Shown here one piece after another: positions 10,143-44,290 of a DNA stretch of 44,412 nt; the first letter of the stretch is position 1; the number at the start of each line of letters is the position of its first letter. The DNA is from Spirochaetota bacterium. Lineage in GTDB: Bacteria; Spirochaetota; UBA4802; UBA5550. The stretch spans positions 1 to 44,412 of the forward strand of contig JAZRYV010000122.1 of NCBI GenBank assembly GCA_045600925.1. Direction: 5' to 3'. The notes beneath the pieces are model-generated. The model was not told where the DNA came from and did not search any database. It was given only the letters and a program-made list of their open reading frames with translations. The position numbers were made by a program, and so were the translations under genes.

Positions 10143-13100
10143 TCATTCCATAGGTTTGATTGTGGACTCGATAAAGGCGATTTCTTCGGATGTTAAACCG
10201 TATTTAGCATACAGTTGAGCATCTATTTCGTTAATATCAAAACCGTATTTTTCTTTTGCAACAGAATCAATTTGAGTAATAGATTTCGACCAATCAATGT
10301 CAATAGATTCTTTTGAAAAATCCAATTTTGGTACATACTGGAAGCTGCTTTCCGAAAAAAGAATGCCAGACAATGTAGATAATATTAAAAATCTTGTAAA
10401 CTTAGTTTTATAATAATTACAACAATTATCTGCCTCTATTTTTGTGTCGAAATAACCGATTATCATATATGATTCGGTACAAATTTCATCATTTAGCAGG
10501 ATGTTTGGTGTTGTAATAACTCTATATGATGATGTAAAATCTTTCACCTTGATTTCTCCATTACTTGGTCGTAAAATTCCAATTCTCACTTTGTATGTTT
10601 CTGCAAGATTATTGTTTTTGGTTATTTCATCGGAAGAGACATATCCAACACCTTCACTGTGAAACAGTTTAAAGCATCCGGGGAAAACACTCTTCTTGCC
10701 TCTTGCGTATGTTCTAAACCCAAAAGGTTTTGATGTCAATATCAAACTCTCCATCGTATCTAAAGATTCCCTTGCTTTTTCAAGAATAGAAACCGCTGAA
10801 TTATAACGAATAACTATAGGATACTGATTCAGTTTCCTGTTGATATTTGAAAAGACCCCATTGTTATGATTAAAAAATGCACACTCGCCTACATATTGTT
10901 TATTCCAAACAAAAAACGAAACACCTCCGGCAATATTTACTGAATTTGCAAAACATTCTGTACTATCTGTAAAATCATCAATGCGAGATATATGACCTTC
11001 GTTAATAAATGCGCTACGAAAACTGTTAAATTTACTACTTGAATACCAACTTGCTTTCGTAATCATCGATACATATTGTTTAGTTAGTGCTGTGCCAGTT
11101 AATATGAATTTTTCAAATATGGACGAACCTCCTATCTCATAACCACCGCCGCCTGCGGTATCTTGATACGGCGGATTTCCTACCACAACATCAAAAATCA
11201 CTTTCTCATCTCCTTCGCCGATTTCATCGTAAATAGTAATTTCATTAAACGGCTTGTTCTGTGTCAGGATTGCACAAATTTTTTCAAAGTCTATTTCTTT
11301 TGTGTTTTGACCTGTTTTTTTGCCTTTAGTATATTTCTTCTTTATTTTCAGCAGGTCATAATCGTTAAACTTGTCGGCGATATTTTCTACATTCAAGCCC
11401 AAAATCTCATAAATCATACGGGTAAACTCGTATGTGAGACCGGATGTTGGGATCGTATAAATCGTACCTTTGATTTGGTCAAGGCTATAGCCGAGCCTCT
11501 TGAAACGCTCGAAAACTGCAAGAGCGAATTCTCCGGCTTTTCCTGCAATATCAAGAATCTTATGACCGTTTTTAATTACACCAGTAAATCCTTCATCCGG
11601 CACAAGAGCGACCATCTCATCACAAATCTTCTTTGGGGTGATTACTTCCGATTCACCAAGTTTTCCGAACTTTTGAACAGCAATGGTCGCTCTTTCAAAC
11701 GGGTTGACGGACGTGTCATTAGAAAGCTTGTTGAGGTTGTGAATCTTATAATCAAGCTTTCGCAGGGTAAATTTGTTGATATTATTTTGAATACTTTCCA
11801 GCACCGGTTTGGAAATGCCGATATGCTTTGCGATTCTGGCATTATCCTCTGTTTCTATCATGGAGATAATACCTTCAAGGGAAATAACGGTATCTCTGGT
11901 CAGAAATGCGAAAAACAAAATTCTTGCATAATATGAACGAAACTGCTTTGCAGGATCGTTTTTCTTTTTCTCATCGTTTGTTCCGCCAGCTGTATCTGTT
12001 CCATCGGTTTCATCTCCGGGCTCATGAGTTCCATCACCACCCGCAGCGCCATCGTCACCGACGTCGCCTCCGGTATCCATATCAGTCCCGTCGCCTTCGG
12101 TTGCTTTAATAGTAAGACCGGCTTTTGAGCCAAGTTCGTTTTCTCTTTCAATGGCACGGCGAATAACGGCAATCTTCATAAGCGAAAGATCAACTGGAAT
12201 CTCAAGAGTTTCTTCCGCTACGCCACGTGATTTGGAATACTCACTGACTGCGTTCAGAATATCCGCTGCCTGCACTTCCTCCATTTTATCACTGTTCATA
12301 ACGATAATCGGAGAAATACGCAGTTCCTCTTTCAGCCGTTCTTCCAGTCTGCTGTTCCCGGCATCGTCCACATTGACATTGTAAATCTGTGCTTTCTGTT
12401 CCTGCATGGAGAACATTCTACCGGGCATAAAGTCCACAAGAAGCGTCTGTGGCTTCATATTGTACTTGATTACATTGCCATTATCGTCAATGTACTTTTT
12501 GATATACTGATTCTGCAAACGGAAAATCGCCTGATCGTATTCCTGCGGAGAAGCGGTATCTTTCAAGAAGAGCATCGTATCCCACTCTTCTACTGTGCTG
12601 CCGGTCAGCATACGGTTTACGGTGAGCGTCAGAGTCTTTTTGCCTTCCTCTTCGCAACGATGAATAAAACTTTTGATTTTCTGAGGATAGCCCAATTTTC
12701 TCGGGACATCGAGCCCGGAGATGTTTACGATCTCGTAGTCGTTCAGATTCTTGAACTTATCGGGATTGCTGCGAATCAGCTCTTCCATTGCGTCACAGGA
12801 GGCACAATAAGGCAACACCATAACGATATGGCGGCACATATTACCGTCTTTGATTTTGTTATAGTCAAGAAATCCGAGAAGTTCGTCATCTTCTTTGCTT
12901 CCGTCGATGACTTCAAGCAGATCGAGGACTTCCTGTTCATAGACAAACTTTTTGTGACTGCCGTCATCCGCTCTTTTTACAGATTTCGGTTTTAACAGAG
13001 CTGAAAAGGCAAAGGAAACACCGCTTTCTTTTAACTCTTTCAGACGCCGACGAGAAGATTCATTGGGGTTAAAGGCAAAACGAATCATCTGCGGGAAGCC

Positions 13101-14279
13101 GTAATACGGGTTGTCCCACTCTTTTACGTCATCAGACAAAACATGTGCTTTATCCCATGCTTCCTGATCCTTCACGATGTCGGAGAATTGATAAAATGCG
13201 ATAATATCATCTTTCGTGAATTCGCTTCCCATCAAAATGCGGTAGGGTGTACCGGAAAGATGTAGTCTGACTTTCGGCTTCAAAACCCTTTCGATCTGCT
13301 CGTCAGCTTCCGATGCTTCAACAAAATCATCGTTATCCTTTTTGTGATTCTGTGCTTTGATCTCGTCTTTGCCAAGTTCACGAAGCACCTGTCCATATTT
13401 TTCTGCGCGGGCACCAAAGTGCGTCTCATCCACAATCAAAAGGTCTATTTGATTTTCAAAGACTTCTTTGTGCTTTTCTTTGATTTCACCACCCTGCAAA
13501 TCCTGCAAGGTCAGAAAGATCGCAGCCTTTTTACCACCGGTAACCGTTTCTTTGATGGTATTTTCATTTGCCAGAAGCGCATTCCCGTCAATGAAAACAT
13601 AATCCGCAAACTTTGTATGGCTTTCTACGGTCTTTTTCCATTCTTCTTTTACATCGGCTTTGGCTGAGACAATAGCGACAATGTTGGCGCCCATCTCAAC
13701 TGCACAACACATAGAGGTAAACGATTTGCCAAAGCGCATAACGGCATACATCAAAAGATTTTTTCTGCCTGCTGCAACTGCAGTTTTGAAACGGTCTATG
13801 GTATCTTTTTGATTGGGGCGGGGCTCATAACTTTCTGTTCTTGCATAAGTAAATGTTTCGGCAAGGCGGGTTTCGGCGTTATAGAACTGATATTTGCCGC
13901 CATTTTGCTGATAATCCCGTGTGATATCTTCTATTGCTTCAATAATATCACGTGCAGTTGCTTCTTTGAAAAACTCTTTTGAATAATAAACATCCGTGGG
14001 AATGTCTGTCTGCTGCAACCGGATGCGTTTCTTTTCGCTTTCGAGAAAATAATGTATCGCAAAATCACGGAAGTAAACATCACTGTCAACTTTCGCTATT
14101 TCTTCATATTGTTTTTCCAAATCGGGGAAATACTCTTTCCACTCATTTAAGCGAACGGAAACAGGACGATATGTATCACCAATTTTCAGATAGCTCGGAA
14201 CAGTCCCTGTCGTAAAAGCATAGATATGAGGATCAACTCTGCCAACTATGATATTATCAAGCAATGAGATATCTTTCAT
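10143..14279 (-). CDS. Single-polypeptide restriction-modification-like enzyme: T5orf172/GIY-YIG-like domain + SF2 helicase + gamma-class N6-adenine DNA methyltransferase + C-terminal target-recognition-like region (1378 aa)
   Basis: The ORF track gives 10143..14324. I start at ATG 14279 (MKDISLL), 4 nt after the upstream stop. N-terminus: HIYAFTT..YLKIGDTYRPVSVRLNEW..SKEFF (~14025-14252). Helicase: EPRPNQ, MRFGKS (13722-13739), DETH (13419-13430), LSGTPYR. A D/G/T-rich acidic linker spans 11955-12104. Methyltransferase: EVITPKKICDEMV (motif X), ILDIAGKAGEFA (motif I), VVGNPPYQ (NPPY at 11166-11177). About 340 further residues follow, ending ..YGLTSEEIAFIESTIKPME. Confidence 0.85.
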   Translation of the reverse strand: MKDISLLDNIIVGRVDPHIYAFTTGTVPSYLKIGDTYRPVSVRLNEWKEYFPDLEKQYEEIAKVDSDVYFRDFAIHYFLESEKKRIRLQQTDIPTDVYYSKEFFKEATARDIIEAIEDITRDYQQNGGKYQFYNAETRLAETFTYARTESYEPRPNQKDTIDRFKTAVAAGRKNLLMYAVMRFGKSFTSMCCAVEMGANIVAIVSAKADVKEEWKKTVESHTKFADYVFIDGNALLANENTIKETVTGGKKAAIFLTLQDLQGGEIKEKHKEVFENQIDLLIVDETHFGARAEKYGQVLRELGKDEIKAQNHKKDNDDFVEASEADEQIERVLKPKVRLHLSGTPYRILMGSEFTKDDIIAFYQFSDIVKDQEAWDKAHVLSDDVKEWDNPYYGFPQMIRFAFNPNESSRRRLKELKESGVSFAFSALLKPKSVKRADDGSHKKFVYEQEVLDLLEVIDGSKEDDELLGFLDYNKIKDGNMCRHIVMVLPYCASCDAMEELIRSNPDKFKNLNDYEIVNISGLDVPRKLGYPQKIKSFIHRCEEEGKKTLTLTVNRMLTGSTVEEWDTMLFLKDTASPQEYDQAIFRLQNQYIKKYIDDNGNVIKYNMKPQTLLVDFMPGRMFSMQEQKAQIYNVNVDDAGNSRLEERLKEELRISPIIVMNSDKMEEVQAADILNAVSEYSKSRGVAEETLEIPVDLSLMKIAVIRRAIERENELGSKAGLTIKATEGDGTDMDTGGDVGDDGAAGGDGTHEPGDETDGTDTAGGTNDEKKKNDPAKQFRSYYARILFFAFLTRDTVISLEGIISMIETEDNARIAKHIGISKPVLESIQNNINKFTLRKLDYKIHNLNKLSNDTSVNPFERATIAVQKFGKLGESEVITPKKICDEMVALVPDEGFTGVIKNGHKILDIAGKAGEFALAVFERFKRLGYSLDQIKGTIYTIPTSGLTYEFTRMIYEILGLNVENIADKFNDYDLLKIKKKYTKGKKTGQNTKEIDFEKICAILTQNKPFNEITIYDEIGEGDEKVIFDVVVGNPPYQDTAGGGGYEIGGSSIFEKFILTGTALTKQYVSMITKASWYSSSKFNSFRSAFINEGHISRIDDFTDSTECFANSVNIAGGVSFFVWNKQYVGECAFFNHNNGVFSNINRKLNQYPIVIRYNSAVSILEKARESLDTMESLILTSKPFGFRTYARGKKSVFPGCFKLFHSEGVGYVSSDEITKNNNLAETYKVRIGILRPSNGEIKVKDFTSSYRVITTPNILLNDEICTESYMIIGYFDTKIEADNCCNYYKTKFTRFLILSTLSGILFSESSFQYVPKLDFSKESIDIDWSKSITQIDSVAKEKYGFDINEIDAQLYAKYGLTSEEIAFIESTIKPME

Positions 14280-14283
14280 ATAA

Positions 14284-15276
14284 TCACTTCCTGTTAATTC
14301 TTTTCCTCTTAAGCAGATCAACAAATTTTACTGTTTTATTTTCTTTCCAGTCTTTAATTCTACAGTAAATACCCGTATGAGCATAGGGATCATTTTTAGT
14401 ACACCCTTTGCATGGCTCCTTTTTTGTCTCTGTGTCAAACAGACTAATCTGGTCCGGTTCCTTCTCCTTGCAGCTTTCTGGAACAACAAATTTCAGGCCA
14501 TCCATTTGCCATATATTCCATGATATAATCGTTGCTATCTCTTTGAGATGTTCTTTAATGGGGAATACACCAAACTTGTTTTCGTAATAATCTATAAAAG
14601 TAAACAGCAGATTTTCTCTTGCAAGCAGAACATTATCGCCCTGCCATTCAAAGCCATATATACTTTGAAATGCCCTTTTCACCCAAAAATACCATTCTTG
14701 TTCATCATCTATATTTTCGGAAACAACCCTGAGCTTTCTGTCAAGAAGACCGATCCTGCGTTTAATCTCTATTACTTCACCTGTCACAGCATCATATCTG
14801 CTTACAAGATACGGGGCTTCACCGCAGGTGATTTCAAGACGAGTATCATCAATATAATCCTGCCAGGTTTTCCCCGATGGTGCAGGAAACGGAACTTTTT
14901 CTGCTGATTCAGTCCATGTTTTATCATGTTCAACATTGAACATCCCTTCCGACTCGAACCAGGCGTTATCTACCAAATTATTTTGTGCATTACAAATCCA
15001 CGAAGGAGTAAACACTTCCGCCTTTTTTCGAATACGTTCTGCCTGTTCTTTTTGTGATTTTTCCGTTCTTGGCTTTATAACATTTCCATTATATCCGGTG
15101 ATGCTTTGAATTGTTATTTGATCCTGAAAATGATAGCCAAAACCACGATCTGAGTAATTATCAGTTGCCCAGATTATGTTTTGTTTTGAAGAATGATCTT
15201 GAAGCAGAATAGAAAGAAGCTCTCTGTCAAGCTTGTATATGTAGTTTTCTTTGATATCTATTAAATTCTTAGCCAT
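14284..15276 (-). CDS. Partner protein: truncated gamma-methyltransferase-like fold with a degenerate motif IV and a C-terminal Cys4 cluster. Function unknown.
   Basis: 330 aa. AEVFTPSWICNAQ (motif X-like, 14998-15018). LEITCGEAPYL (resembles TaqI-type motif I LEPACAHGPFL, 14806-14838). IYGFEWQGDNVLLARENL (motif II-like). NIWQMDGL (motif III-like). NDPY sits where NPPY is expected (14383-14394). The protein ends 32 aa later. Cysteines at residues 269/289/292/305 follow C-x19-C-x2-C-x12-C. The stop is 4 nt from the downstream start. Confidence 0.6.
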   Translation of the reverse strand: MAKNLIDIKENYIYKLDRELLSILLQDHSSKQNIIWATDNYSDRGFGYHFQDQITIQSITGYNGNVIKPRTEKSQKEQAERIRKKAEVFTPSWICNAQNNLVDNAWFESEGMFNVEHDKTWTESAEKVPFPAPSGKTWQDYIDDTRLEITCGEAPYLVSRYDAVTGEVIEIKRRIGLLDRKLRVVSENIDDEQEWYFWVKRAFQSIYGFEWQGDNVLLARENLLFTFIDYYENKFGVFPIKEHLKEIATIISWNIWQMDGLKFVVPESCKEKEPDQISLFDTETKKEPCKGCTKNDPYAHTGIYCRIKDWKENKTVKFVDLLKRKRINRK

Positions 15277-35784: not shown

Positions 35785-35818
35785 AAGAAGAAAAAGGCAG
35801 CCGGAATCTCCGGCTGCC
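35785..35818 (-). terminator. Rho-independent terminator after the tpsA/immunity pair
   Basis: GGCAGCCGG-(5 nt)-CCGGCTGCC, a 9-bp stem, at 35796-35818. TTTTTCTTCTTC follows on the minus strand. Confidence 0.75.
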
Positions 35819-35836: not shown

Positions 35837-36415
35837 TTAAAAATTATAATAAAAACAATTCTGACTTCCGTCATCTACCGGAATCAGATCATAAGGAGAT
35901 TCCACAGGTCCGCAGAGATCTATGCACTTAAGGTCCACTTTTATGCTGAATTCAAAGCTGCACGGGATTCCGTTTACAGTAAAATTGTAGTAATAAGAAA
36001 CATCATTCCCTGAAAGATTAAACTCAGAAGGATTTTCAATATCAAAATTCCCAGGCATGTTCTTTTTATAGAAGTCCAGGAACTCCCTGAAAGTCTTTTT
36101 TACTTCTCCCGTCCTGCATGGAACATCAATACCTGATATTGCTATATTCTTCTTTAAAAGTTTTTTTTCATGACAGTATTTATCCAGTTCTAAATATGAT
36201 ACATCTTCAAGTGTTCCTCTGAAGACAGGCATACTGACTTCCTTCCCTTTCCGGACATATACTATATTTGAACAGTAAAGTACAATACTGTAAGGGCTGT
36301 TTTTCATCTGACCCACATGCTTTTCTGTAAGTTCTCCTGCTGTTAATGTCTTTTTTTCAGCACCAGAAGCGGCGGCTGCGGCCAGAATCATAAGCACGGC
36401 TGCGATTTTTTTCAT
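35837..36415 (-). CDS. Secreted 192-aa protein; candidate periplasmic immunity protein for the upstream toxin domain
   Basis: Sec-type signal peptide MKKIAAVLMILAAAAASGA|EKK with no lipobox. RBS AAGGAG lies 8 nt upstream, inside the tpsA 3' end. The start overlaps the tpsA ORF by 59 nt. I recognise no family. Confidence 0.55.
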   Translation of the reverse strand: MKKIAAVLMILAAAAASGAEKKTLTAGELTEKHVGQMKNSPYSIVLYCSNIVYVRKGKEVSMPVFRGTLEDVSYLELDKYCHEKKLLKKNIAISGIDVPCRTGEVKKTFREFLDFYKKNMPGNFDIENPSEFNLSGNDVSYYYNFTVNGIPCSFEFSIKVDLKCIDLCGPVESPYDLIPVDDGSQNCFYYNF

Positions 36416-39400
36416 TCTTTTTCTCCTTACTCTTGTTTTTTCTTATAATATTGTATTTCATCAAAGTCTTGGTTTTATTAAGAACCATTTCGTCCGGTTT
36501 TTTCGGATCTGGTTTACAGAGCCTGTTTTCTCTGGGATCATAGTAGGTATAGCTGGAATTGACTCCTGCAGGATCCTTAACTGTAAAATACAGCTGATTG
36601 TTTATAACTGTATATCCGTCAAAAACCACTGAATGTCCCCGTTCTTTACCAGGACCTTCCCCTACTCTGGCATGAATCACTGCCCCTTCATTAAGAACTT
36701 TAATCATGTCATTGACTGCGCTGTCAGTCGGGGCACCAAATTTTTTAGAAACAGGATCATAGGCTCCTGTATCAATGTATGCCTCCGGCCCCCCGCTGAC
36801 TCCAAGGAGCTCCAGGATCTTCGACGGATCCCGGACATAGGCATCCTTCCCTCTGACTGCGGAATTCTTCCCGTCCCAGGACAGCGTATTTACCGCCATG
36901 TCAAAGGCTTCCGCCAGAGAAATATCAGGATTCCCTCCCAGAATCTGAGCTATCATGTAGTAGCTGGTAAAAGTACAGGCTGATTTGCCAGGTCTGGTAC
37001 TGCCAAGACTCATCTGATAATAATTCTGAATTTTTGAGGCAAGACCTTCAATGTCAATATCCGGATATTTTTCCTTAAGGGCTGCTACAAAGTCATCAAT
37101 TTTTTTCTGAATTCCTTCCGCAGCATTTCCTTCCTCTTCCGGAACAGATTCTTCAGCCTCAGAAACGGCAAAAGAAAAATCCAGCCCGAGGGACTGAAAT
37201 ATGCCGTTGATTTTTTCCTTCATGGAATCAATCTTTCCGGAAGCCTCTCTTCCCAGACCTGATACTATGCTGTCCCATGTATTACCCGGTTCTGACAGTA
37301 CATTTATAAGATCCTCATAAAAAGCAGGAAGTCCGGCCTCTATTCTGTTATACAGAGCCACCCCCTGTGAAAAAGCGGTGGACAGTGTATCCAAAGGATG
37401 AAGGATCTCCTCATTTATTTCAAAAGCTCCGCTGAAACCCAGTTCAGGTCCTTCATACTGGGAGACACTGGTGTCCCTGTTCAGACCTTCTGTACTGCCT
37501 CCATCCAGAACAGTTATGGTTCCAGCTCCGACTGTTGCAATATTATTCTGACTGCTCCAGTTCACTCCGTAGTCTCCGGAAACCGTTCCGGAAGAATCCG
37601 ATTCGCCTTCCCCTGTACTGCACTCTGCACTGAGTCCGAAAGAAAAGCTGCCCTCAGAATCCTGAATGCTGCTGTATTCCAGACTTCCTGTGGTCAGATC
37701 CAGTTTTTCATCATCCGAATCAATTACAGCTCCCCTTATTGATGTTTTCCCTGCGACATTAATATCAACAGAATTCCCTGTAAAGGATGTCTGATCCGTT
37801 ACCCATGATCTGTCAGATGAAGATACAGATAAAGAGGCATTTCCTCCGGAGGTATTCACTCCACCTCCAAAAGAAGCAGAGGAAGAAGAGGAAGTATCCT
37901 GAAGAGATTCCAGAAGAAGATTTCCTCCGGCAGATACAGACAGAGCCCCCTCTGCATCCACATTGACACCGGAACCGGTTATATTCCCCTCCGAATTAAG
38001 AGTAATATTTCCACCTGTAATAACACTGTTTACATGAAAAGATGCGTCATTTTCATTCTGAGAAACATTTCCTGAAGCAGAGCTGAAACTCAGTCCTGCT
38101 GTTCCTATCCCGAAAGACGCATTAAGAGAATGACTGGAAGAACTGCCGGATGAGGATCCTTCTCCGGCTCCCAGACGGATCTCTCCTGCTTCTATGAGAA
38201 TATTTCCTGCAGAAACAGGTTCTTCTCCATCTTCCGGTTCACCAAAAGAATAAGATGTAACAGTACTGCCGGTAATATCAGCACTTTCTCCTGCCTTAAT
38301 GACAACGTTTCCTTCCCCTGCAATAACAGAACCCACAGTATTTTCGGAATGGGAAGAAGAGGTATTAACAGAGGCACTTATATCCATATTCACATCTGCC
38401 TTAAAACCTGCTGTTCCAAGACTGGCTGCTGCATTTCCTGCAGCAGAAACAGCAGCCAGAGCTGCTGCAGCCTGATTTTCAGTACACAGCACAATATTTG
38501 CCAGATAATACTTCTCTGCTTCCATAGTTCGGTCATAGGTTTCCTTTGTAATGAGCCCTTTTTTATAAGCTTCCTCTGCCTTTTCCTTTTCATGGAGATA
38601 GGCATCGTAATCCTTTCTTGCCTGATCCAGTTTTTCCGTGGCTTCTGCAGCTTCTTTTATTGCCTGAGCCGCAGATCCTCCGGAATTACTTACCCCGGCA
38701 GAAACCACCACTGCCCCCTGAGCTGTGCTTTCAGAAGAATCAGCTGTTTCCACAGCACAGTTTATGACTACATTTTTTTCCGATGACAGGGAAAGATCAT
38801 CTTTTGCCGACACATAAGAACCTGTGACAGTCAGATCTCCTTTTGATGAAATGGATACATTCTGACCATATATGCCGGATGATGTCTGAGATGTTTCAGA
38901 AGTACTGTTCTCCTGTTTAAGATACTCTCCTGTGGCAAGGGTAACGGAAAGACTTTCTCCGGAAAACAGAGTTTCCAGTATTTCCGGAGTATTGTTATAA
39001 TTAAAAAAATCTCCGGCTATTTTGTCAAAGTCTCTGATGCAGTCTCCGGCAGTAATATTTATATTTTCATGGGAACTGTGTTCCATGTAAAAATTTTCCG
39101 CCGTCTCTGCAGTAAAGGCTCCGTCAGTATTAATATCCACACTGTATGCAGAAACAGTACTTCCACTTAACAGTGTATCTCCGCTGCTGTGGCTTATAAA
39201 ACCTCCTGCCTCTGCTTCCGTTCCATGAGACGAGACAGACATATTTCCTGCTGTGTCTGCAGTTATATCCGCCAGATTCAGACCATCAACAAAGGAAGCT
39301 GATGAATGAAGATGTTCCTCACTGTGATAGTCATATGAAGAAAGGAGACTGATGTCTCCGCCGGCTTCCATGGAAATACAGTTCCCTGCAGAAACACAGC

Positions 39401-42400
39401 TTCCTGTAAGAGTAACATCCGCCCCTGCATCATATGAATTATTCCCTTCTGAAGAAGATGATGATCCAGCAGAAACAAAATCCTGTACAGAATCAGCATC
39501 CTGAGATTTTCCCCAGACACCTCCGTGACCGAAACCACTTTTGGTTTCAGTATGAACATATTCATGTTCATTTACAGCAGCATTCTCAGTAATGCTTCCT
39601 TCAGCCTGACGGCTTATACTCCCTCCTGCTGAAATTGTACTTCCCTGAATGATCAGATCCTCTCCGGAAATCAGTTCCACACCCTCTCCTGCCTGAATAG
39701 AAGAACCGACAGACACCTTATCCCATTCCCGCGTATAAGAATCGAAAGATGACCATGTACTGTCCCCGTGATGGATTCTTTCATAAAGCCTGCTCTCATA
39801 GGCATCCGCAATAGAAAAAGTTTTCCCTGCCTTCCCGTAAAAAGACCCGCCTGTATTTACAGTACTTCCCTGAATCAGAATTCCGCCACCTGCATTCAGA
39901 CCAAAACTCCCTGCTGTATTTACCTCCACAGGAAGAATCTCAGTCTGAGTCAGGCTCCAGGATGTTCCTCCTCCGGATGATCCGGTCTGAGAAAAAACTT
40001 CCTGATTCGTAATATTTACGGATCCGGCTGCTTCCATCCAGACATCTCCGTCCCCATGCAGAATACCGTGTATTTCAATATCTCCGTCAGCAGAAACATC
40101 AGCATTCCCTCCTGCAGAAATTTCAGCAGTACTGCCTGTATAACTGAAAATCTGTCCGGAAGAATTTTCCTGTTCAATATATGATCCGCTGTACAATGAT
40201 CCGGAATTAATGATAATATCATCTCCGGAATGGACTGTCCCGCTTAAATTAGAAAAGACACCCTGAACATCAGCAGTCAGATCTTCTCCCGAAGAAAGAA
40301 TGCCGCTGCTTCCTCCGGCACTTTCATTATAAAAGGCAGAAGACTGAATATTAATATCTTCTTCTGCAGTTATAAAGCCGCTGTTATGGACTGAGCCGTC
40401 AATATCAATGTCCACACTGCCCCCTGCAAGAACAGCTCCCTGTCCGGAATCAAAGCCTTCAAGCATGGAGGATGGAACATAAATTCTGGGAATCAGAACT
40501 GTTTCTCCGTCTATGACCTCGTAAACATACCATACAACAGGCTGCTGAAGACTGCTGATCTGTTCCGGAGTAAGTTCTGTTCCTATGGAAAGATGAAGAT
40601 TCTCCATGACATTTTCTGCATTATCCATGAGAATAAGCATCTGTTCCCTGTCTGATGACACCTCTTTGGAAATATACTTTCTCTTAAGAGCCTGTTCCAC
40701 CATGAGAGACACCAGCTGCTGCTCATAAAAAGGATCCCCCGCAAACTTTGTGCCATCCGGAACTTCTATTCCTGCCCTGCTGAGAAAATATTCAGAACCG
40801 AAAAAATCTGACTGATCCACGAACTGACTCCGTGTTTCCACAAGGTACTGTGAATCTCTGGATGCCTGCTGAAATACAGGCATGCCGTTCAGATAATGAA
40901 TATAATCCGATGAATCTGCATATCCGTTATCCTTTATGTTCTGTATACGGTCCGAATACACAGTATGGATTCCAGGCAGCTCTGCAAATCCGTTCCACAG
41001 TCCTGTGTTCTCTTCAGATGCACCGTCCTTTACAGAAAGATTTCCACCTGCAAGAACAGATGCCTGATCAGAAGAAATAAAGGTAAGAGTTCCGGAATCC
41101 CACCAGTCGGAATACCTGTTATGATGATCATATGTAAAGGGACCTATTTTTTCGGATACCCATTCCTTTTTTCCCCAGTGTCTCCATTCCGGCAGGAACA
41201 GATCCTCCGTAAAGGTCAGATTCTTTACAGTATCTGCATTCAGATTCATATCCTGTCCGGCCAGTATCAGGCTTCCATTGTTTTCCAGAACCGATGCTTC
41301 TACAGTAAGATCTGTTCCTGCACTTATTACTGAAGGAACAGATGTTTTTTCATAATCCGCAGTGTACTCCTCAAGAACAACCGTGGATTCACTCTGATAA
41401 TCGCTTTTAAACTGTTTTATGAGAGTATATACTGCATCCCTGTCCAGCCCGTTATTATAAAGTTTTCCTCTTCCAAGATTCATAGTGACAGAACCGTCGG
41501 CAGAGATAAAACCTTCATCATTGTAAAGGTCCATATCTTCCATGCCTTCGAACAGAAGATCATCAAAGCTGCAGACAGCACCCTGCTGATTACGCAGAAT
41601 GGCAGCTGTTATGCTCATGTCTCCGGAAGACAAAAGCAGTCCCAGATTGTTCACCTGATCAGCAGTAATATTCATGAAACCTCCTGATTCCACAGAGGCA
41701 TCCGGTCCGTTCGTAACAGTTTTACCTGTTAAACTGACTCCTCCCAAACCGGAAACAAAACCTTCATTATCGATGCTGTCCGCAGATACTTCAACTCTGC
41801 CCATGGACTCCGAAGTTCCCCTGCCGGTAAAACTTCCTGCTGCAGTTACAGAAAGATTCCCGGCAGCGGCTGTATCTGCCAGCTCAATGTTTCCCTGAGC
41901 CGTGATCACCAGATCTCCGGCATCAGCAGTCAGGGCAGAATCTGATCTTACGCCAAGACCTGCCTCATTGCCTACAAGGTAAATTCTGCCTGCAGAAACG
42001 TTTCCAAGAACAGAACAGTCCACTGCAAACTGAGGAGCAGGACCGGCATTCCGGTCTTCCTGCTTCAGTTTTCTGCTGCCGTAATCATAGGACCCGGTTC
42101 CGGTCTGCATATGGAGATTTTCTGCTTTCACAGCTCCGCCGACAGTTATGGATCTGGTCACAAGATCAAGTCTGTCTGTTCCGTATGCATTCATTCCTCC
42201 GGATCCTATTTCAATGCTGCCGCCGCTGACATCAGCCCCCTTAAAACTGCCTCCTTCATAAATTCCTCTTCCTGTAATCAGAGAAGCAGAAGGCATGTTG
42301 ATGAAACCTGCACCGCTGACATACATTCCGTTCGGATTAAGAAGCACCAGATCTGCTGATTTACCGAACATTTCGGTTGTACCTGCAAGAGTGGAAGGCA

Positions 42401-42764
42401 GAGAACCTGTAACTTCGTTTACAACCAGATCCGCAGTTCTTCCGTTCTGCTGATAGTCAGGATTTCCGCAGATGTATCCGCCGAGAACTGACTGACCGTA
42501 CTGAACCGAATTGTTCAGAATCAGATTGGATTCATCCACATTGTAGGATGAAAAATGATTGAGAGAAACTCCTGCCGGAGAAGGAGCCGTAAGGTTGATT
42601 ACAGGTGTTCCGTTGGGAGCAATATCCATTCCGGGACCGTGACCTGCGGAATTATCAGGAACAATGTTTGCCCCGAAGACTTTTGAAACAGCCAGCTGCA
42701 TTTGTGCAGCTGCTGCCAGAAGCAGAAATACAGCTGTCAGAAAAGATCTTTTTACCGCTTTCAT
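36357..42764 (-). CDS. TpsA/FhaB-family filamentous exoprotein (2135 aa) with a C-terminal papain-fold cysteine peptidase-like toxin domain
   Basis: Signal peptide MKAVKRSFLTAVFLLLAAAAQMQLA. The TPS (haemagglutination activity) domain reads NGTPVINLTAPSPAGVSLNHFSSYNVDESNLILNNS...LLNPNGMYVSGAGFIN (~42240-42677). About 1700 aa of G/S/T/N-rich beta-helix-type repeats follow. The C-terminal ~190 aa carry GKSACTFTSYY (Cys codon 36975-36977), GHSVVFDGY (His codon 36633-36635) and FTVKDPAG. Confidence 0.88.
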   Translation of the reverse strand: MKAVKRSFLTAVFLLLAAAAQMQLAVSKVFGANIVPDNSAGHGPGMDIAPNGTPVINLTAPSPAGVSLNHFSSYNVDESNLILNNSVQYGQSVLGGYICGNPDYQQNGRTADLVVNEVTGSLPSTLAGTTEMFGKSADLVLLNPNGMYVSGAGFINMPSASLITGRGIYEGGSFKGADVSGGSIEIGSGGMNAYGTDRLDLVTRSITVGGAVKAENLHMQTGTGSYDYGSRKLKQEDRNAGPAPQFAVDCSVLGNVSAGRIYLVGNEAGLGVRSDSALTADAGDLVITAQGNIELADTAAAGNLSVTAAGSFTGRGTSESMGRVEVSADSIDNEGFVSGLGGVSLTGKTVTNGPDASVESGGFMNITADQVNNLGLLLSSGDMSITAAILRNQQGAVCSFDDLLFEGMEDMDLYNDEGFISADGSVTMNLGRGKLYNNGLDRDAVYTLIKQFKSDYQSESTVVLEEYTADYEKTSVPSVISAGTDLTVEASVLENNGSLILAGQDMNLNADTVKNLTFTEDLFLPEWRHWGKKEWVSEKIGPFTYDHHNRYSDWWDSGTLTFISSDQASVLAGGNLSVKDGASEENTGLWNGFAELPGIHTVYSDRIQNIKDNGYADSSDYIHYLNGMPVFQQASRDSQYLVETRSQFVDQSDFFGSEYFLSRAGIEVPDGTKFAGDPFYEQQLVSLMVEQALKRKYISKEVSSDREQMLILMDNAENVMENLHLSIGTELTPEQISSLQQPVVWYVYEVIDGETVLIPRIYVPSSMLEGFDSGQGAVLAGGSVDIDIDGSVHNSGFITAEEDINIQSSAFYNESAGGSSGILSSGEDLTADVQGVFSNLSGTVHSGDDIIINSGSLYSGSYIEQENSSGQIFSYTGSTAEISAGGNADVSADGDIEIHGILHGDGDVWMEAAGSVNITNQEVFSQTGSSGGGTSWSLTQTEILPVEVNTAGSFGLNAGGGILIQGSTVNTGGSFYGKAGKTFSIADAYESRLYERIHHGDSTWSSFDSYTREWDKVSVGSSIQAGEGVELISGEDLIIQGSTISAGGSISRQAEGSITENAAVNEHEYVHTETKSGFGHGGVWGKSQDADSVQDFVSAGSSSSSEGNNSYDAGADVTLTGSCVSAGNCISMEAGGDISLLSSYDYHSEEHLHSSASFVDGLNLADITADTAGNMSVSSHGTEAEAGGFISHSSGDTLLSGSTVSAYSVDINTDGAFTAETAENFYMEHSSHENINITAGDCIRDFDKIAGDFFNYNNTPEILETLFSGESLSVTLATGEYLKQENSTSETSQTSSGIYGQNVSISSKGDLTVTGSYVSAKDDLSLSSEKNVVINCAVETADSSESTAQGAVVVSAGVSNSGGSAAQAIKEAAEATEKLDQARKDYDAYLHEKEKAEEAYKKGLITKETYDRTMEAEKYYLANIVLCTENQAAAALAAVSAAGNAAASLGTAGFKADVNMDISASVNTSSSHSENTVGSVIAGEGNVVIKAGESADITGSTVTSYSFGEPEDGEEPVSAGNILIEAGEIRLGAGEGSSSGSSSSHSLNASFGIGTAGLSFSSASGNVSQNENDASFHVNSVITGGNITLNSEGNITGSGVNVDAEGALSVSAGGNLLLESLQDTSSSSSASFGGGVNTSGGNASLSVSSSDRSWVTDQTSFTGNSVDINVAGKTSIRGAVIDSDDEKLDLTTGSLEYSSIQDSEGSFSFGLSAECSTGEGESDSSGTVSGDYGVNWSSQNNIATVGAGTITVLDGGSTEGLNRDTSVSQYEGPELGFSGAFEINEEILHPLDTLSTAFSQGVALYNRIEAGLPAFYEDLINVLSEPGNTWDSIVSGLGREASGKIDSMKEKINGIFQSLGLDFSFAVSEAEESVPEEEGNAAEGIQKKIDDFVAALKEKYPDIDIEGLASKIQNYYQMSLGSTRPGKSACTFTSYYMIAQILGGNPDISLAEAFDMAVNTLSWDGKNSAVRGKDAYVRDPSKILELLGVSGGPEAYIDTGAYDPVSKKFGAPTDSAVNDMIKVLNEGAVIHARVGEGPGKERGHSVVFDGYTVINNQLYFTVKDPAGVNSSYTYYDPRENRLCKPDPKKPDEMVLNKTKTLMKYNIIRKNKSKEKKNEKNRSRAYDSGRSRRFWC

Positions 42765-42788: not shown

Positions 42789-42873
42789 GAGGGAAAATCC
42801 CTCTGAAAGGAATACGTAAATGGAGGCCTGATTTTTAAAAAAATACGGAATTTTTTTGAACTTTTTTTAAAAA
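42789..42873. repeat. Copy A of an ~85-nt imperfect direct repeat (tpsA leader/promoter region)
   Basis: Shares an identical 18-nt core CCTCTGAAAGGAATACGT (42800-42817) with copy B. It also shares ordered blocks: GAGGG(C)AAAA, GAGG(C/T)CT, TTTAAAAAA, CGGAA(T/C)TTTTTT, TTTTTTT(G)AAAAA. It contains the hairpin GAGGGA-AAA-TCCCTC (42789-42803). Confidence 0.8.
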
Positions 42874-42882
42874 TTTTAAATT

Positions 42883-42905
42883 TTTTTTGCATTTTATGCA
42901 AAAAA
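42883..42905. promoter_or_regulatory. Perfect 10-bp A/T-rich palindrome (weak terminator of the 81-aa ORF or an operator in the tpsA promoter)
   Basis: TTTTTTGCAT-TTT-ATGCAAAAAA, immediately after the stop codon at 42906-42908 (minus sense). Confidence 0.4.
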
Positions 42906-43151
42906 TCAGCCTTTTATGACCAGTTCAGTGATTACTGACATGGGAATACCTGTGATTCCGGAAACAAAGGAAGGAGGACTGCCGGATGACAGCAGAGCCT
43001 GAGACATCTCCATTCTTGCCTTCCTTTCCCCTATTTTTATGCCTGCTCGTTCCCCCAGAGAAATACCTTCCCTCATTCCCTCTGTTCTGGCATTCTGATA
43101 TTTCATCCTCAGAATCATAAATGCCTGTTTCCACTGATCAGAATTTTTCAT
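42906..43151 (-). CDS. 81-aa ORF resembling only the C-terminal module of Rpn/TIGR01784-type PD-(D/E)xK putative transposase-family proteins; probable gene remnant or stand-alone small protein
   Basis: The segment ARTEGMREGISLGERAGIKIGERKARMEMSQALLSSG..ITGIPMSVITELV matches the EG-repeat plus helix-turn-helix-like tail I recall for that family. No nuclease domain is present. RBS-like AGAGG lies upstream. Confidence 0.45.
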   Translation of the reverse strand: MKNSDQWKQAFMILRMKYQNARTEGMREGISLGERAGIKIGERKARMEMSQALLSSGSPPSFVSGITGIPMSVITELVIKG

Positions 43152-43220: not shown

Positions 43221-43313
43221 GAGGGCAAAAAGGAAAAGCCTCTGAAAGGAATACGTTTTTGAGGTCTTAAAATTTAAAAAATTCCGGAACTTTTTTCTGT
43301 TTTTTTGAAAAAA
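43221..43313. repeat. Copy B of the ~85-nt imperfect direct repeat (leader of the 81-aa ORF)
   Basis: Core CCTCTGAAAGGAATACGT at 43239-43256, same orientation as copy A and 439 nt away. Confidence 0.8.
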
Positions 43314-43439
43314 TGAAGTTTTTAATGGTTTGATGCTTTAAAAAGAACAGACGTTCGGGCTGAACAGTTAAATATCAGCAAAAAAAATCCTTGAAAAAAA
43401 CCTGTTATTATTAATAAACTTCAAACAGGAGGAGAAAAT

Positions 43440-43736
43440 ATGGGACAGATAATATATGATATTCCAAGAACTGAAGGAGAGATCATTCGTGTTGAAGTAA
43501 GTGACTTCAAAGGGCATGAACTGATTAATATGAGAACATGGTATGCATCCATTGATACAGCATCAGGCAGTCTGACCTACAAACCAACACAGAAGGGATT
43601 TGCTCTTAAAGTTGAAAAATTCAGCGAACTGAAAGAAGCTGTAAGAAGGCTGGAACTTTTTCTGTCCGACAGGGAAAAAGGCATTCAGCCAGAACAGTTT
43701 CAGGAAGCGAAAACTGAAGATATTCCGGAAGAATAA
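43440..43736 (+). CDS. PC4/YdbC-like small ssDNA-binding-fold protein
   Basis: 98 aa. The pattern EIIRVEVSDFKGHELINMRTWY...KPTQKGFALKVEKFSELKEAV matches bacterial PC4-like proteins as I recall them. RBS AGGAGGAG. Confidence 0.55.
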   Translation: MGQIIYDIPRTEGEIIRVEVSDFKGHELINMRTWYASIDTASGSLTYKPTQKGFALKVEKFSELKEAVRRLELFLSDREKGIQPEQFQEAKTEDIPEE

Positions 43737-43753
43737 TTAAAACAGGTGATCTT

Positions 43754-44290
43754 ATGAATAAAAAATTTTTTTCATTCTGTTCTGCTTTTATTGCTGCCGC
43801 TGCCTTTCTTATGCTTTCATGTTCTTCTGTCCAGAATCAGGGAGATGAATATGCTTCAGACGGTTTTCTGACAGCAGATCCTGAATCACCGGAACTTTTT
43901 CATGTTCTTCTGACGGCAGATTCCTATCAGGTCGTTCAGATGAAAAAGAAAGCCTCTATAGCCAGAGTTGAGGACAAAGGAGGAGATGCCTATATCTCCT
44001 CAGAGCTGACTGCTTTCAACAAGATTGATGAGGTCCGTGACGGCATAATAGCAGTCTGGCTTTTTCCTGACACCGGCAGGCTGATGAAGATCCGCCCTCA
44101 GAAATCAACATATCTTATGGAAATAGACAAACTGATTACTGATGACATACAGAGATGGAACTTCACTTTTCCAAATAAAACAATAGAACCCACAAGCTTC
44201 AGCATCCGGTACAGAGTCGTCCTTAAAAAGACTCTTTCCGATGAAGAAATAATCAAGGAAGTCCAGGACCGCATGAGAGAAGGAAACTGA
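43754..44290 (+). CDS. Lipoprotein, hypothetical
   Basis: Signal peptide plus lipobox (FLMLS|C). RBS AGGTGA. I recognise no family. Confidence 0.65.
   Translation: MNKKFFSFCSAFIAAAAFLMLSCSSVQNQGDEYASDGFLTADPESPELFHVLLTADSYQVVQMKKKASIARVEDKGGDAYISSELTAFNKIDEVRDGIIAVWLFPDTGRLMKIRPQKSTYLMEIDKLITDDIQRWNFTFPNKTIEPTSFSIRYRVVLKKTLSDEEIIKEVQDRMREGN

Follow-up and report, generated by a model that had tools for sequence, protein, structure and literature searches.

A candidate TpsA-type polymorphic toxin with a putative papain-fold C-terminal domain and a predicted exported partner protein in an uncultured spirochaete

Organization of the tpsA–imm locus

The window analyzed here, i.e., the whole 44,412-nucleotide (nt) contig JAZRYV010000122.1 of a Spirochaetota bacterium (assembly GCA_045600925.1), carries a pair of genes that is considered below as a candidate polymorphic toxin module resembling those of contact-dependent growth inhibition (CDI). 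The first gene, tpsA (36357..42764, stop codon included), is a single uninterrupted open reading frame (ORF) for a 2135-residue two-partner-secretion (TPS) exoprotein with a putative C-terminal toxin domain, and its product matches the Pfam families TPS, Fil_haemagg_2, and Peptidase_C39_2. The second, imm (35837..36415), encodes a 192-residue protein with a predicted signal peptide (MKKIAAVLMILAAAAASGA) and is the candidate cognate immunity gene, as indicated by its reading frame, its ribosome-binding site, and its family linkage. All features of this locus lie on the minus strand unless a strand is given. An initial annotation of this DNA had placed both genes, and their coordinates and lengths (2135 and 192 residues) proved exact. 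Every motif that it quoted was found at the residue given, including Cys1930, His2044, and Asp2064. It had described the 192-residue ORF simply as the next gene; the ORF does lie directly downstream, but it overlaps tpsA by 59 nt and is not merely adjacent to it. An AAGGAG ribosome-binding site (36423–36428) is located 7 nt before the ATG of imm, and an intrinsic terminator with a 10-bp stem, eight G-C pairs, and a T-run (35796..35818) begins 19 nt past its stop codon. Because of the overlap, the ribosome-binding site, and the strong terminator after imm, tpsA–imm forms a discrete bicistronic unit, separate from the alaS gene of the same contig. The Pfam and NCBIfam matches and the exact motif positions in TpsA are not attributable to chance.

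TpsA begins with a Sec-type signal peptide (residues ~1–31, MKAVKRSFLTAVFLLLAAAAQMQLAVSKVFG; 42672..42764), as the initial annotation had proposed. Inspection of the translation revealed a Lys/Arg-containing basic n-region followed by a hydrophobic core of 13 residues, ahead of the TPS domain; the cleavage site is approximate. The TPS secretion domain (residues 32–295; 41880..42671) is clearly recognizable, matching Pfam PF05860 with an E value of 4.3e-35 over the entire profile (positions 1–252 of 252) and NCBIfam TIGR01901, the NPXG haemagglutinin N-terminal domain, with an E value of 5.9e-12. The two TPS motifs named earlier, LILNNS and NPNGMYV, were located at residues 81–86 and 143–149, respectively. 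The remainder of the carrier is a filament shaft (residues 296–1759; 37488..41879) composed of filamentous haemagglutinin (FHA)-type repeats and non-repeat inserts. Four stretches of it match Fil_haemagg_2 (Pfam PF13332, E 6.7e-36), the best of them at residues 1462–1632 (37869–38381). The earlier description of about 1700 residues of repeats therefore holds insofar as FHA repeats are present, but this span also includes non-repeat segments, e.g., a helical stretch at residues ~1365–1450. This stretch (38450–38672) is a strongly helical, Lys/Glu-rich segment, AAQAIKEAAEATEKLDQARKDYDAYLHEKEKAEEAYKKGLITKETYDRT, that interrupts the FHA repeats and is conserved in a 2440-residue relative (P0003). 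TpsA is colinear with P0003 (30–41% identity; 30% over ~1600 residues in the shaft) and with the 2300-residue TpsA of a related locus, L088. No close relative of TpsA was found among 185,579 species-representative genomes. From its sequence, the product of tpsA is supported as a carrier of the TpsA/FhaB type.

The shaft is followed by a conserved pre-toxin motif, GLNRDTSVSQYE (residues 1760–1771; 37452..37487), which is also present in L081, L088, P0009, and P0012 and has been retained by the orphan cassettes L085 and L090b at their 5′ ends. Its form GLNRD(T/V)S..QYE is conserved in all TpsA proteins and fragments examined, and the two orphan cassettes start with an LKRDV..AQY version of it. 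The initial annotation had noted that no VENN-type demarcation precedes the toxin domain. Consistent with this statement, the Pfam family PT-VENN has no match in TpsA and VENN does not occur in its sequence; a different conserved motif, GLNRD..QYE, occupies this region and, in this lineage, apparently takes over the function of VENN. The demarcation feature is thus present in function but not in its defining sequence, since VENN is missing, yet the GLNRD..QYE motif is accompanied by an identity break in relatives, as described below. A lineage-specific linker (residues 1772–1911; 37032..37451), described as helical in the initial annotation, connects the motif to the peptidase domain. Residues 1781–1873 of this linker (query residues 1–93) matched only themselves among 1.84 billion protein cluster representatives.

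At its 3′ end, tpsA encodes a basic tail of 24 residues, SKEKKNEKNRSRAYDSGRSRRFWC (36360..36431), which lies beyond the usual end of the family in the toxin alignment A1 and overlaps imm. Upstream of it is a run of six A residues (36436–36441). One added A would create a TAA stop codon at 36427–36429, 11 nt before the ATG of imm; in relatives, the gap between the toxin gene and imm is 12–33 nt. The tail may be a real extension, a recent frameshift, or a homopolymer error.

The C-terminal domain and its predicted exported partner

The putative toxin domain comprises residues 1912–2111 (36432..37031) and was assigned as a papain-fold, C39_2-like cysteine peptidase on the basis of PF13529, its conserved residues, and AlphaFold2 (AF2) and Foldseek analyses. 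When taken in isolation, the 225-residue domain matches Peptidase_C39_2 (PF13529) with 26.2 bits (E 1.3e-5; profile positions 3–143 of 143), above the gathering cut-off of 24. This family is matched by 11 of the 14 members of the toxin family, and single members also match C70 and C10. The candidate catalytic residues are Gln1917, Cys1930 (36975–36977, within SACTFTS), His2044 (36633–36635, within GHSVVFDGY), and Asp2064 (36573–36575, within VKDPAG), and they are followed by a YDP triplet at residues 2075–2077. In alignment A1, His134, Asp154 (V.DP), and the YDP triplet are invariant, the Cys of ACTF is present in all 12 sequences covering it, and a Gln 13 residues upstream of the Cys occurs in at least 70% of the sequences. 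The spacing between Cys1930 and His2044 is 114 residues, a distance that fits papain and staphopain rather than NlpC/P60 enzymes.

The AF2 model of the domain, built on the family alignment, has a mean predicted local distance difference test score (pLDDT) of 73 and a predicted TM-score (pTM) of 0.71. In this model, the Cys is located at the start of a helix (residues 19–33 of the model), while the His and Asp are on strands. A Foldseek search of the PDB returned, as weak matches, the C-terminal domain of BtaeB (PDB 9jdd, the top neighbor), staphopain, the staphopain–staphostatin complex, phytochelatin synthase, IdeS/Mac-1, Lpg2622, and cathepsins; the interpretable top matches were all papain-fold proteins. 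Weak as these fold matches are, they agree with the above-threshold PF13529 match and with the ordered Gln, Cys, His, and Asp, so that the C39-like/papain layout proposed in the initial annotation is retained. In a published classification of papain-like enzymes, cluster I places C47 staphopain, C70, C39, C39_2, BtrH, and phytochelatin synthase in one subcluster, and cluster I as a whole is kept apart from the cluster of peptidoglycan-processing NlpC/P60 and CHAP enzymes (PMC10318531). The families of the Foldseek neighbors fall mostly within cluster I. At the sequence level, and weakly at the fold level, the domain is identified as a predicted papain-fold cysteine peptidase of the C39_2/staphopain/phytochelatin-synthase subcluster. 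An assignment to NlpC/P60 or CHAP was rejected: the NlpC/P60, CHAP, and amidase families of Pfam have no match in the 14 members at E values up to 1, no NlpC/P60 or CHAP structure is found within the top 50 Foldseek matches, and the Cys–His spacing of 114 residues also speaks against it.

The C-terminal domain retrieved nothing in a word-indexed homology search, and relatives were collected by an exhaustive HMMER scan of the 1.84 billion cluster representatives. Only 13 other representatives contain the domain, matching residues ~1918–2090 with E values of 2e-10 to 3e-4. They include the 2440-residue TpsA (P0003), two C-terminal fragments of TpsA proteins (P0009 and P0012), a C-terminal fragment of an RHS protein (P0004), and short proteins of 165–450 residues; P0004 was called RHS from its YD-repeat and core-end sequence, with no Pfam match on record. 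In every case, the domain is at the extreme C-terminus. The toxin subfamily is very rare and, so far, confined to Spirochaetota.

For the 192-residue protein, a word-indexed search returned only the protein itself. The genes directly downstream of the toxins in L081, L082, L083, and L085 nonetheless encode homologs of it with 26–32% identity, and a profile of these five sequences led to a family of 26 members, all annotated as 'hypothetical'; alignment A4 of the immunity family was used for the metagenome scan. All members with a taxon label belong to Spirochaetota or Leptospirales. None of the 26 has a meaningful Pfam match (Imm*, SUKH, and SuFu families included), and the immunity profile found nothing below an E value of 0.1 among PDB sequences. 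The AF2 model of the 192-residue protein has a pLDDT of 91 and a pTM of 0.83, and Foldseek revealed no structural neighbor of it in the PDB (best E 0.026, TM-score 0.2–0.3). Staphostatin-, cystatin-, and BtaiB-like immunity folds were rejected by the same comparison.

The signal peptide ascribed to the 192-residue protein in the initial annotation is borne out by its translation, in which a hydrophobic core comes after an initial basic n-region. N-terminal export signals of this kind, in which the core is strongly hydrophobic, are present in 24 of the 26 family members, and the other two are truncated gene calls. A lipobox-like Cys is located at position 17–22 in 14 members. Cys81 is conserved in at least 90% of the family and Cys152 in most members, which is compatible with a disulfide bond. 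Collectively, these features suggest that the 192-residue protein is a member of a new exported family of candidate immunity proteins.

The linkage between the two families was analyzed by applying their hidden Markov models to all ORFs of 27 fetched loci and of the window. Each of the 18 distinct toxin ORFs is directly followed, on the same strand, by an ORF of the immunity family (18/18), which supports the earlier proposal that the downstream gene encodes the cognate partner. Two further, divergent toxins (L096 and L100) show the same toxin-then-immunity order. When the carrier type was judged by homology to the TpsA shaft, TpsA-type shafts were found in the window, L081, L088, L092, L093, L096, and L102, an RHS-type carrier in L082, and short orphan cassettes otherwise. 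A comparison of the TpsA of L081 with P0009 provides evidence for exchange of the domain: the two proteins are ~95% identical up to ...AEGGELVDK and only ~25% identical thereafter, where they carry different subtypes of the same peptidase. The break is ~75 residues past the GLNRD..QYE motif, and such a junction is a signature of cassette exchange. The occurrence of the domain on TpsA, RHS, and orphan cassettes, together with this identity break, corresponds to the polymorphic-toxin behavior expected in the initial annotation.

Immunity-family genes also occur without an adjacent toxin in L086 (10001–10645), L094 (2461–3084), and L095 (7965–8594), and as tandem copies in L100 (1061–2285). These orphan immunity genes suggest selection for protection against the toxins of neighbors. 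The orphan gene of L086 adjoins a phage-type integrase and is close to PIN/VapB and MazE modules. In L082 (3037–5306), L085 (1–2219), and L099 (3–1566), papain-toxin cassettes sit in arrays with other toxin–immunity pairs. In the L082 array, a 539-residue protein with a C-terminal Peptidase_M23 domain (33.6 bits) precedes a 217-residue protein with a signal peptide, while L085 and L099 contain another, unassigned toxin with a homologous partner of ~215 residues, which in L099 starts with a lipoprotein-type signal. The M23 cassette and the L085 and L099 pairs look like further envelope-directed toxin families, and the M23 cassette with its exported partner fits arrays specialized for envelope targets.

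Genomic surroundings of the module

The 44.4-kb contig is chromosomal, with a GC content of ~44%, and the tpsA–imm locus has no compositional anomaly. Pfam and NCBIfam scans identified the housekeeping genes ftsK, gltX, uvrB, ccm genes, panB, glpX, and alaS. The alanyl-tRNA synthetase encoded by the contig shares 55–74% identity with those of metagenome-assembled genomes of uncultured Spirochaetota and Leptospirales. Among 80 related alaS loci, each analyzed with up to 10 kb of flanking DNA, none contains tpsA or imm, and the module is therefore accessory. Since gene orientation varies among these alaS-anchored loci, a clean insertion site cannot be defined.

Upstream of tpsA, the leader or promoter region contains one copy of a ~90-nt direct repeat (42795..42884). 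The second copy (43234–43323) is located upstream of an 81-residue ORF; the two are 72% identical and have in common an exact 18-mer, ACGTATTCCTTTCAGAGG, with two matches versus 0.06 expected by chance. The repeat might have arisen by duplication of a promoter or leader, or it might be the footprint of a rearrangement that parted tpsA from tpsB, the gene for the partner channel. The 18-mer was not found in 91 fetched loci. The 1.6 kb between tpsA and the contig end contain the 81-residue ORF and two opposite-strand genes. The 81-residue ORF (42906–43151, minus strand), which lies between tpsA and the first of these genes, matches, and only faintly (E 0.006), the C-terminal portion of Rpn-family recombination-promoting nuclease/putative transposase proteins. 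The divergent pair (43440–44290, plus strand) encodes a PC4/p15-like ssDNA-binding protein of 98 residues and a 178-residue homolog of the LA_2219 family of laminin-, E-cadherin-, and plasminogen-binding proteins. In L023 and L025, the LA_2219 homolog immediately precedes alaS and shares the orientation of that gene, and the placement of the homolog in the window is a hint that the surroundings of the toxin module have been rearranged locally. The exact sequence of the LA_2219-like neighbor was looked up with the aim of reaching a possible tpsB beyond the contig end, and nothing was found. An Rfam scan of the 35.5–44.4 kb region yielded terminator-driven noise alone.

Two of the relatives, L081 and L088, contain a full operon in the order tpsB, a gene of 124 or 125 codons, tpsA, and imm, and their TpsA proteins are colinear with that of the window. 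The small gene (L081, 7436–7813; L088, 2534–2908) is conserved, encodes a signal peptide, has no Pfam match, and is not present in the window; the 81-residue ORF is unrelated to it. Its product may assist these spirochaetal TPS systems as an accessory factor.

Far from the locus, a 1393-residue fusion protein (10143–14324, minus strand) combines ResIII helicase and Eco57I-type methylase domains and resembles a type IIG/ISP-like restriction–modification enzyme. The next ORF, of 330 residues (14284–15276), has no Pfam match. Both are located in a stretch at ~10–16 kb with a GC content of 34–39%, compared to ~44% elsewhere, and this low value around the restriction–modification-like gene indicates that the stretch is likely a separately acquired defense islet.

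Site of action and relation to known systems

We consider it somewhat probable that the locus is a CDI-like polymorphic toxin module of an uncultured Leptospirales-like spirochaete, in which a cysteine peptidase acts in the periplasm and is inhibited by its exported partner. By analogy with TpsA and CdiA biology, TpsA would be exported via Sec, its TPS domain would be recognized by a TpsB channel encoded elsewhere, and the protein would be displayed as a β-helical filament. The peptidase would then be delivered into the periplasm of a neighboring cell, with no need to cross the inner membrane, and would cleave a substrate of the cell envelope there, either a protein or a peptide, with Gln1917 as the putative oxyanion hole and Cys1930, His2044, and Asp2064 as the putative triad. 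The 192-residue protein, presumably made from the same transcript, would be exported by its own signal peptide, as a lipid-anchored protein in many relatives, and would bind and block the peptidase in the periplasm of the producer. It would thereby guard the producer against attack by siblings and against its own toxin waiting in the periplasm before delivery. In the established model of CdiA, the C-terminal half of the protein waits in the producer's periplasm, so that an exported inhibitor would be necessary. Toxin–immunity cassettes would be swapped between carriers by recombination at the GLNRD..QYE and AGELV(D/E)KT handles, as shown in relatives. The periplasmic site of action is suggested by the export signal of the partner: a cytoplasmic toxin would need a cytoplasmic antidote, and there is no second small gene before the terminator.

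Several observations weigh against this interpretation. The large ORFs of the 44.4-kb contig contain no POTRA_2/ShlB match, and the contig ends 1.6 kb upstream of tpsA; a tblastn search with the TpsB of L081 did not detect a tpsB remnant on the contig either, and a remnant in the window was rejected on this result. With full-length TpsA as the query, the match to Peptidase_C39_2 (residues 1912–2066) is 20.6 bits (E 7e-4), i.e., below the Pfam cut-off. The Foldseek scores are weak, with E values no better than 4e-3, TM-scores of 0.33–0.43, and probabilities up to 0.99 for a model with a pLDDT of 73, and sequence and profile searches of PDB sequences with the toxin domain using HMMER found nothing. 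When toxin and immunity variability was compared among homologous loci, as the initial annotation had suggested, fine-scale co-variation was not detected: toxin-pair and immunity-pair identities are uncorrelated across seven loci (rho −0.03, n = 21 pairs). Moreover, the chemistry may be that of a peptidoglycan-peptide amidase or a transpeptidase, and a protease directed against a eukaryotic host would likewise call for an exported inhibitor.

Some of these points belong to alternative explanations. The domain could be a peptidoglycan-directed amidase or endopeptidase that cuts the stem peptide, e.g., at the γ-D-Glu–mDAP (meso-diaminopimelate) bond or at a cross-link, in the manner of the Tae effectors of type VI secretion systems (T6SSs), rather than a protease acting on proteins. 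Such an enzyme would be in keeping with the periplasmic target implied by exported immunity, with the presence among the structural neighbors of phytochelatin synthase, which acts on γ-glutamyl peptides, and with the M23 peptidoglycan-endopeptidase cassette in the same array of L082. Nevertheless, it is unlikely, as no member of the family matches an NlpC/P60, CHAP, or amidase family of Pfam, no NlpC/P60 or Tae structure is found within the top 50 Foldseek matches, and the Cys–His spacing of 114 residues and the helical lobe fit papain-like cluster I, which stands apart from the peptidoglycan-processing cluster (PMC10318531). A cytoplasmic target was also considered, with the 192-residue protein merely shielding the periplasm of the producer during export. 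C39-related papain-like toxins on CdiA carriers are documented with such targets: the Cpe1 toxins cleave GyrB and ParE and have 85 CdiA-linked homologs (PMC12136450). The linker of ~140 residues before the domain could be an entry domain as well. This explanation is improbable given that cytoplasmic immunity would be needed against delivery by siblings, whereas every complete member of the partner family has an export signal and imm is the only small gene ahead of the terminator.

Two further explanations were considered. TpsA might be a host-directed or surface-remodeling exoprotein, similar to an adhesin or cytolysin, that carries a staphopain/IdeS-like protease, with the 192-residue protein as a staphostatin-like self-inhibitor. 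Staphopain, IdeS/Mac-1, and the staphopain–staphostatin complex are indeed among the structural neighbors, and some relatives come from gut-associated metagenome-assembled genomes. However, the model of the immunity protein is unlike staphostatin, and the identity break, the orphan cassettes, the stand-alone and tandem immunity genes, and the RHS carrier are hallmarks of polymorphic toxins, which makes this explanation quite improbable. Finally, the papain-like domain might be degenerate or act as an autoprocessing (releasing) peptidase, with the locus as a decaying, non-secretable remnant. Papain-like domains can serve as releasing peptidases in polymorphic toxins (PMC3482391), no TpsB is encoded on the contig, and the 3′ end of tpsA is unusual in its 24-residue extension past the family terminus, possibly due to a homopolymer frameshift. 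Yet the 6.4-kb ORF is uninterrupted, none of the candidate catalytic residues has been lost, the protein has no other toxin domain for a peptidase to release, the dedicated partner gene is conserved, and the contig end bars any conclusion on TpsB; we regard this explanation as very improbable. A bolder version of the favored periplasmic-peptidase model is decidedly unlikely, namely that the locus represents the first TPS/CDI-delivered protease that kills from the periplasm, that it cleaves a spirochaete-specific envelope protein (e.g., a periplasmic flagella component or an outer-membrane lipoprotein tether), and that the partner has a new cysteine-protease-inhibitor fold.

The module has much in common with the CdiB/CdiA/CdiI systems, which belong to the type Vb secretion systems (T5bSSs). 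Both have a Sec signal, a TPS domain, a filament of FHA repeats, a variable C-terminal toxin, and an immunity gene directly downstream, and in both there are orphan toxin–immunity cassettes and a sharp identity break between related alleles. In contrast to CdiA, the GLNRD..QYE motif and the AGELV(D/E)KT handle replace VENN/PT-VENN here, and the immunity protein is predicted to be exported or lipid-anchored, whereas CDI immunity proteins are cytoplasmic or located in the inner membrane. The host phylum, Spirochaetota, also differs, and no cdiB/tpsB gene is found beside the window copy. Most of the characterized CDI toxins are nucleases or ionophores (PMC11630599).

The Cpe1/Cpi1 pair resembles the module in its toxin, a C39-related Cys-His-Asp peptidase that serves as a C-terminal toxin on CdiA/Rhs carriers and has a dedicated downstream immunity protein; the carriers of this group of papain-like toxins number 85 for CdiA and 70 for T6SSs, and the toxin targets GyrB and ParE are cytoplasmic (PMC12136450). 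By contrast, the present domain has staphopain, phytochelatin synthase, and BtaeB as structural neighbors instead of ComA or LahT, and the immunity protein described here is predicted to be exported. The immunity protein of Cpe1 is assumed to be cytoplasmic.

Another related group, Tox-PL-C39, was catalogued in 2012 in Bacteroidetes, Chloroflexi, and Firmicutes, with delivery by type II secretion systems, T6SSs, or Photorhabdus virulence cassettes (PVCs); no dedicated immunity family is given in the table, and Imm-SuFu is listed with it in Bacteroidetes (PMC3482391). Tox-PL-C39 and the C-terminal domain of BtaeB, a T6SS effector of B. fragilis, resemble the present domain in having a C39-like papain-fold triad of Cys, His, and Asp at the C-terminus of polymorphic toxins, including RHS proteins. 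Unlike Tox-PL-C39, the present family is T5bSS-linked, occurs in Spirochaetota, and has its own exported immunity family. The similarity to BtaeB, although the best structural match, is weak and confined to structure (E 4e-3, 16% identity), and the literature on BtaeB/BtaiB consists of a passing mention with no activity described. The Tae/Tai amidases and the metallopeptidase VgrG2b of T6SSs follow the same logic, in that exported immunity implies a target in the envelope or periplasm. They differ in the secretion system and in the fold (NlpC/P60 or zinc metallopeptidase), and no homology to them was detected by Pfam or Foldseek.

Papain-like toxins on CdiA/Rhs carriers and exported immunity proteins for periplasmic effectors are thus already known. 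The present module differs from known systems in its toxin subfamily, its demarcation motif, its exported immunity family, and, by inference, the compartment attacked. To our knowledge, CDI-like systems have not been studied in uncultured Leptospirales-like Spirochaetota, for which evidence of CDI-like warfare, including orphan cassettes and orphan immunity genes, is presented here. The module would add a new toxin subfamily and a new immunity/inhibitor family with a confidently predicted fold that lacks a structural neighbor. If the periplasmic interpretation is correct, a TpsA-borne cysteine peptidase with exported immunity would bring enzymatic attack on the periplasm into the scope of CDI, in contrast to the characterized CDI toxins, almost all of which are nucleases or ionophores whose action takes place at the inner membrane or beyond it.

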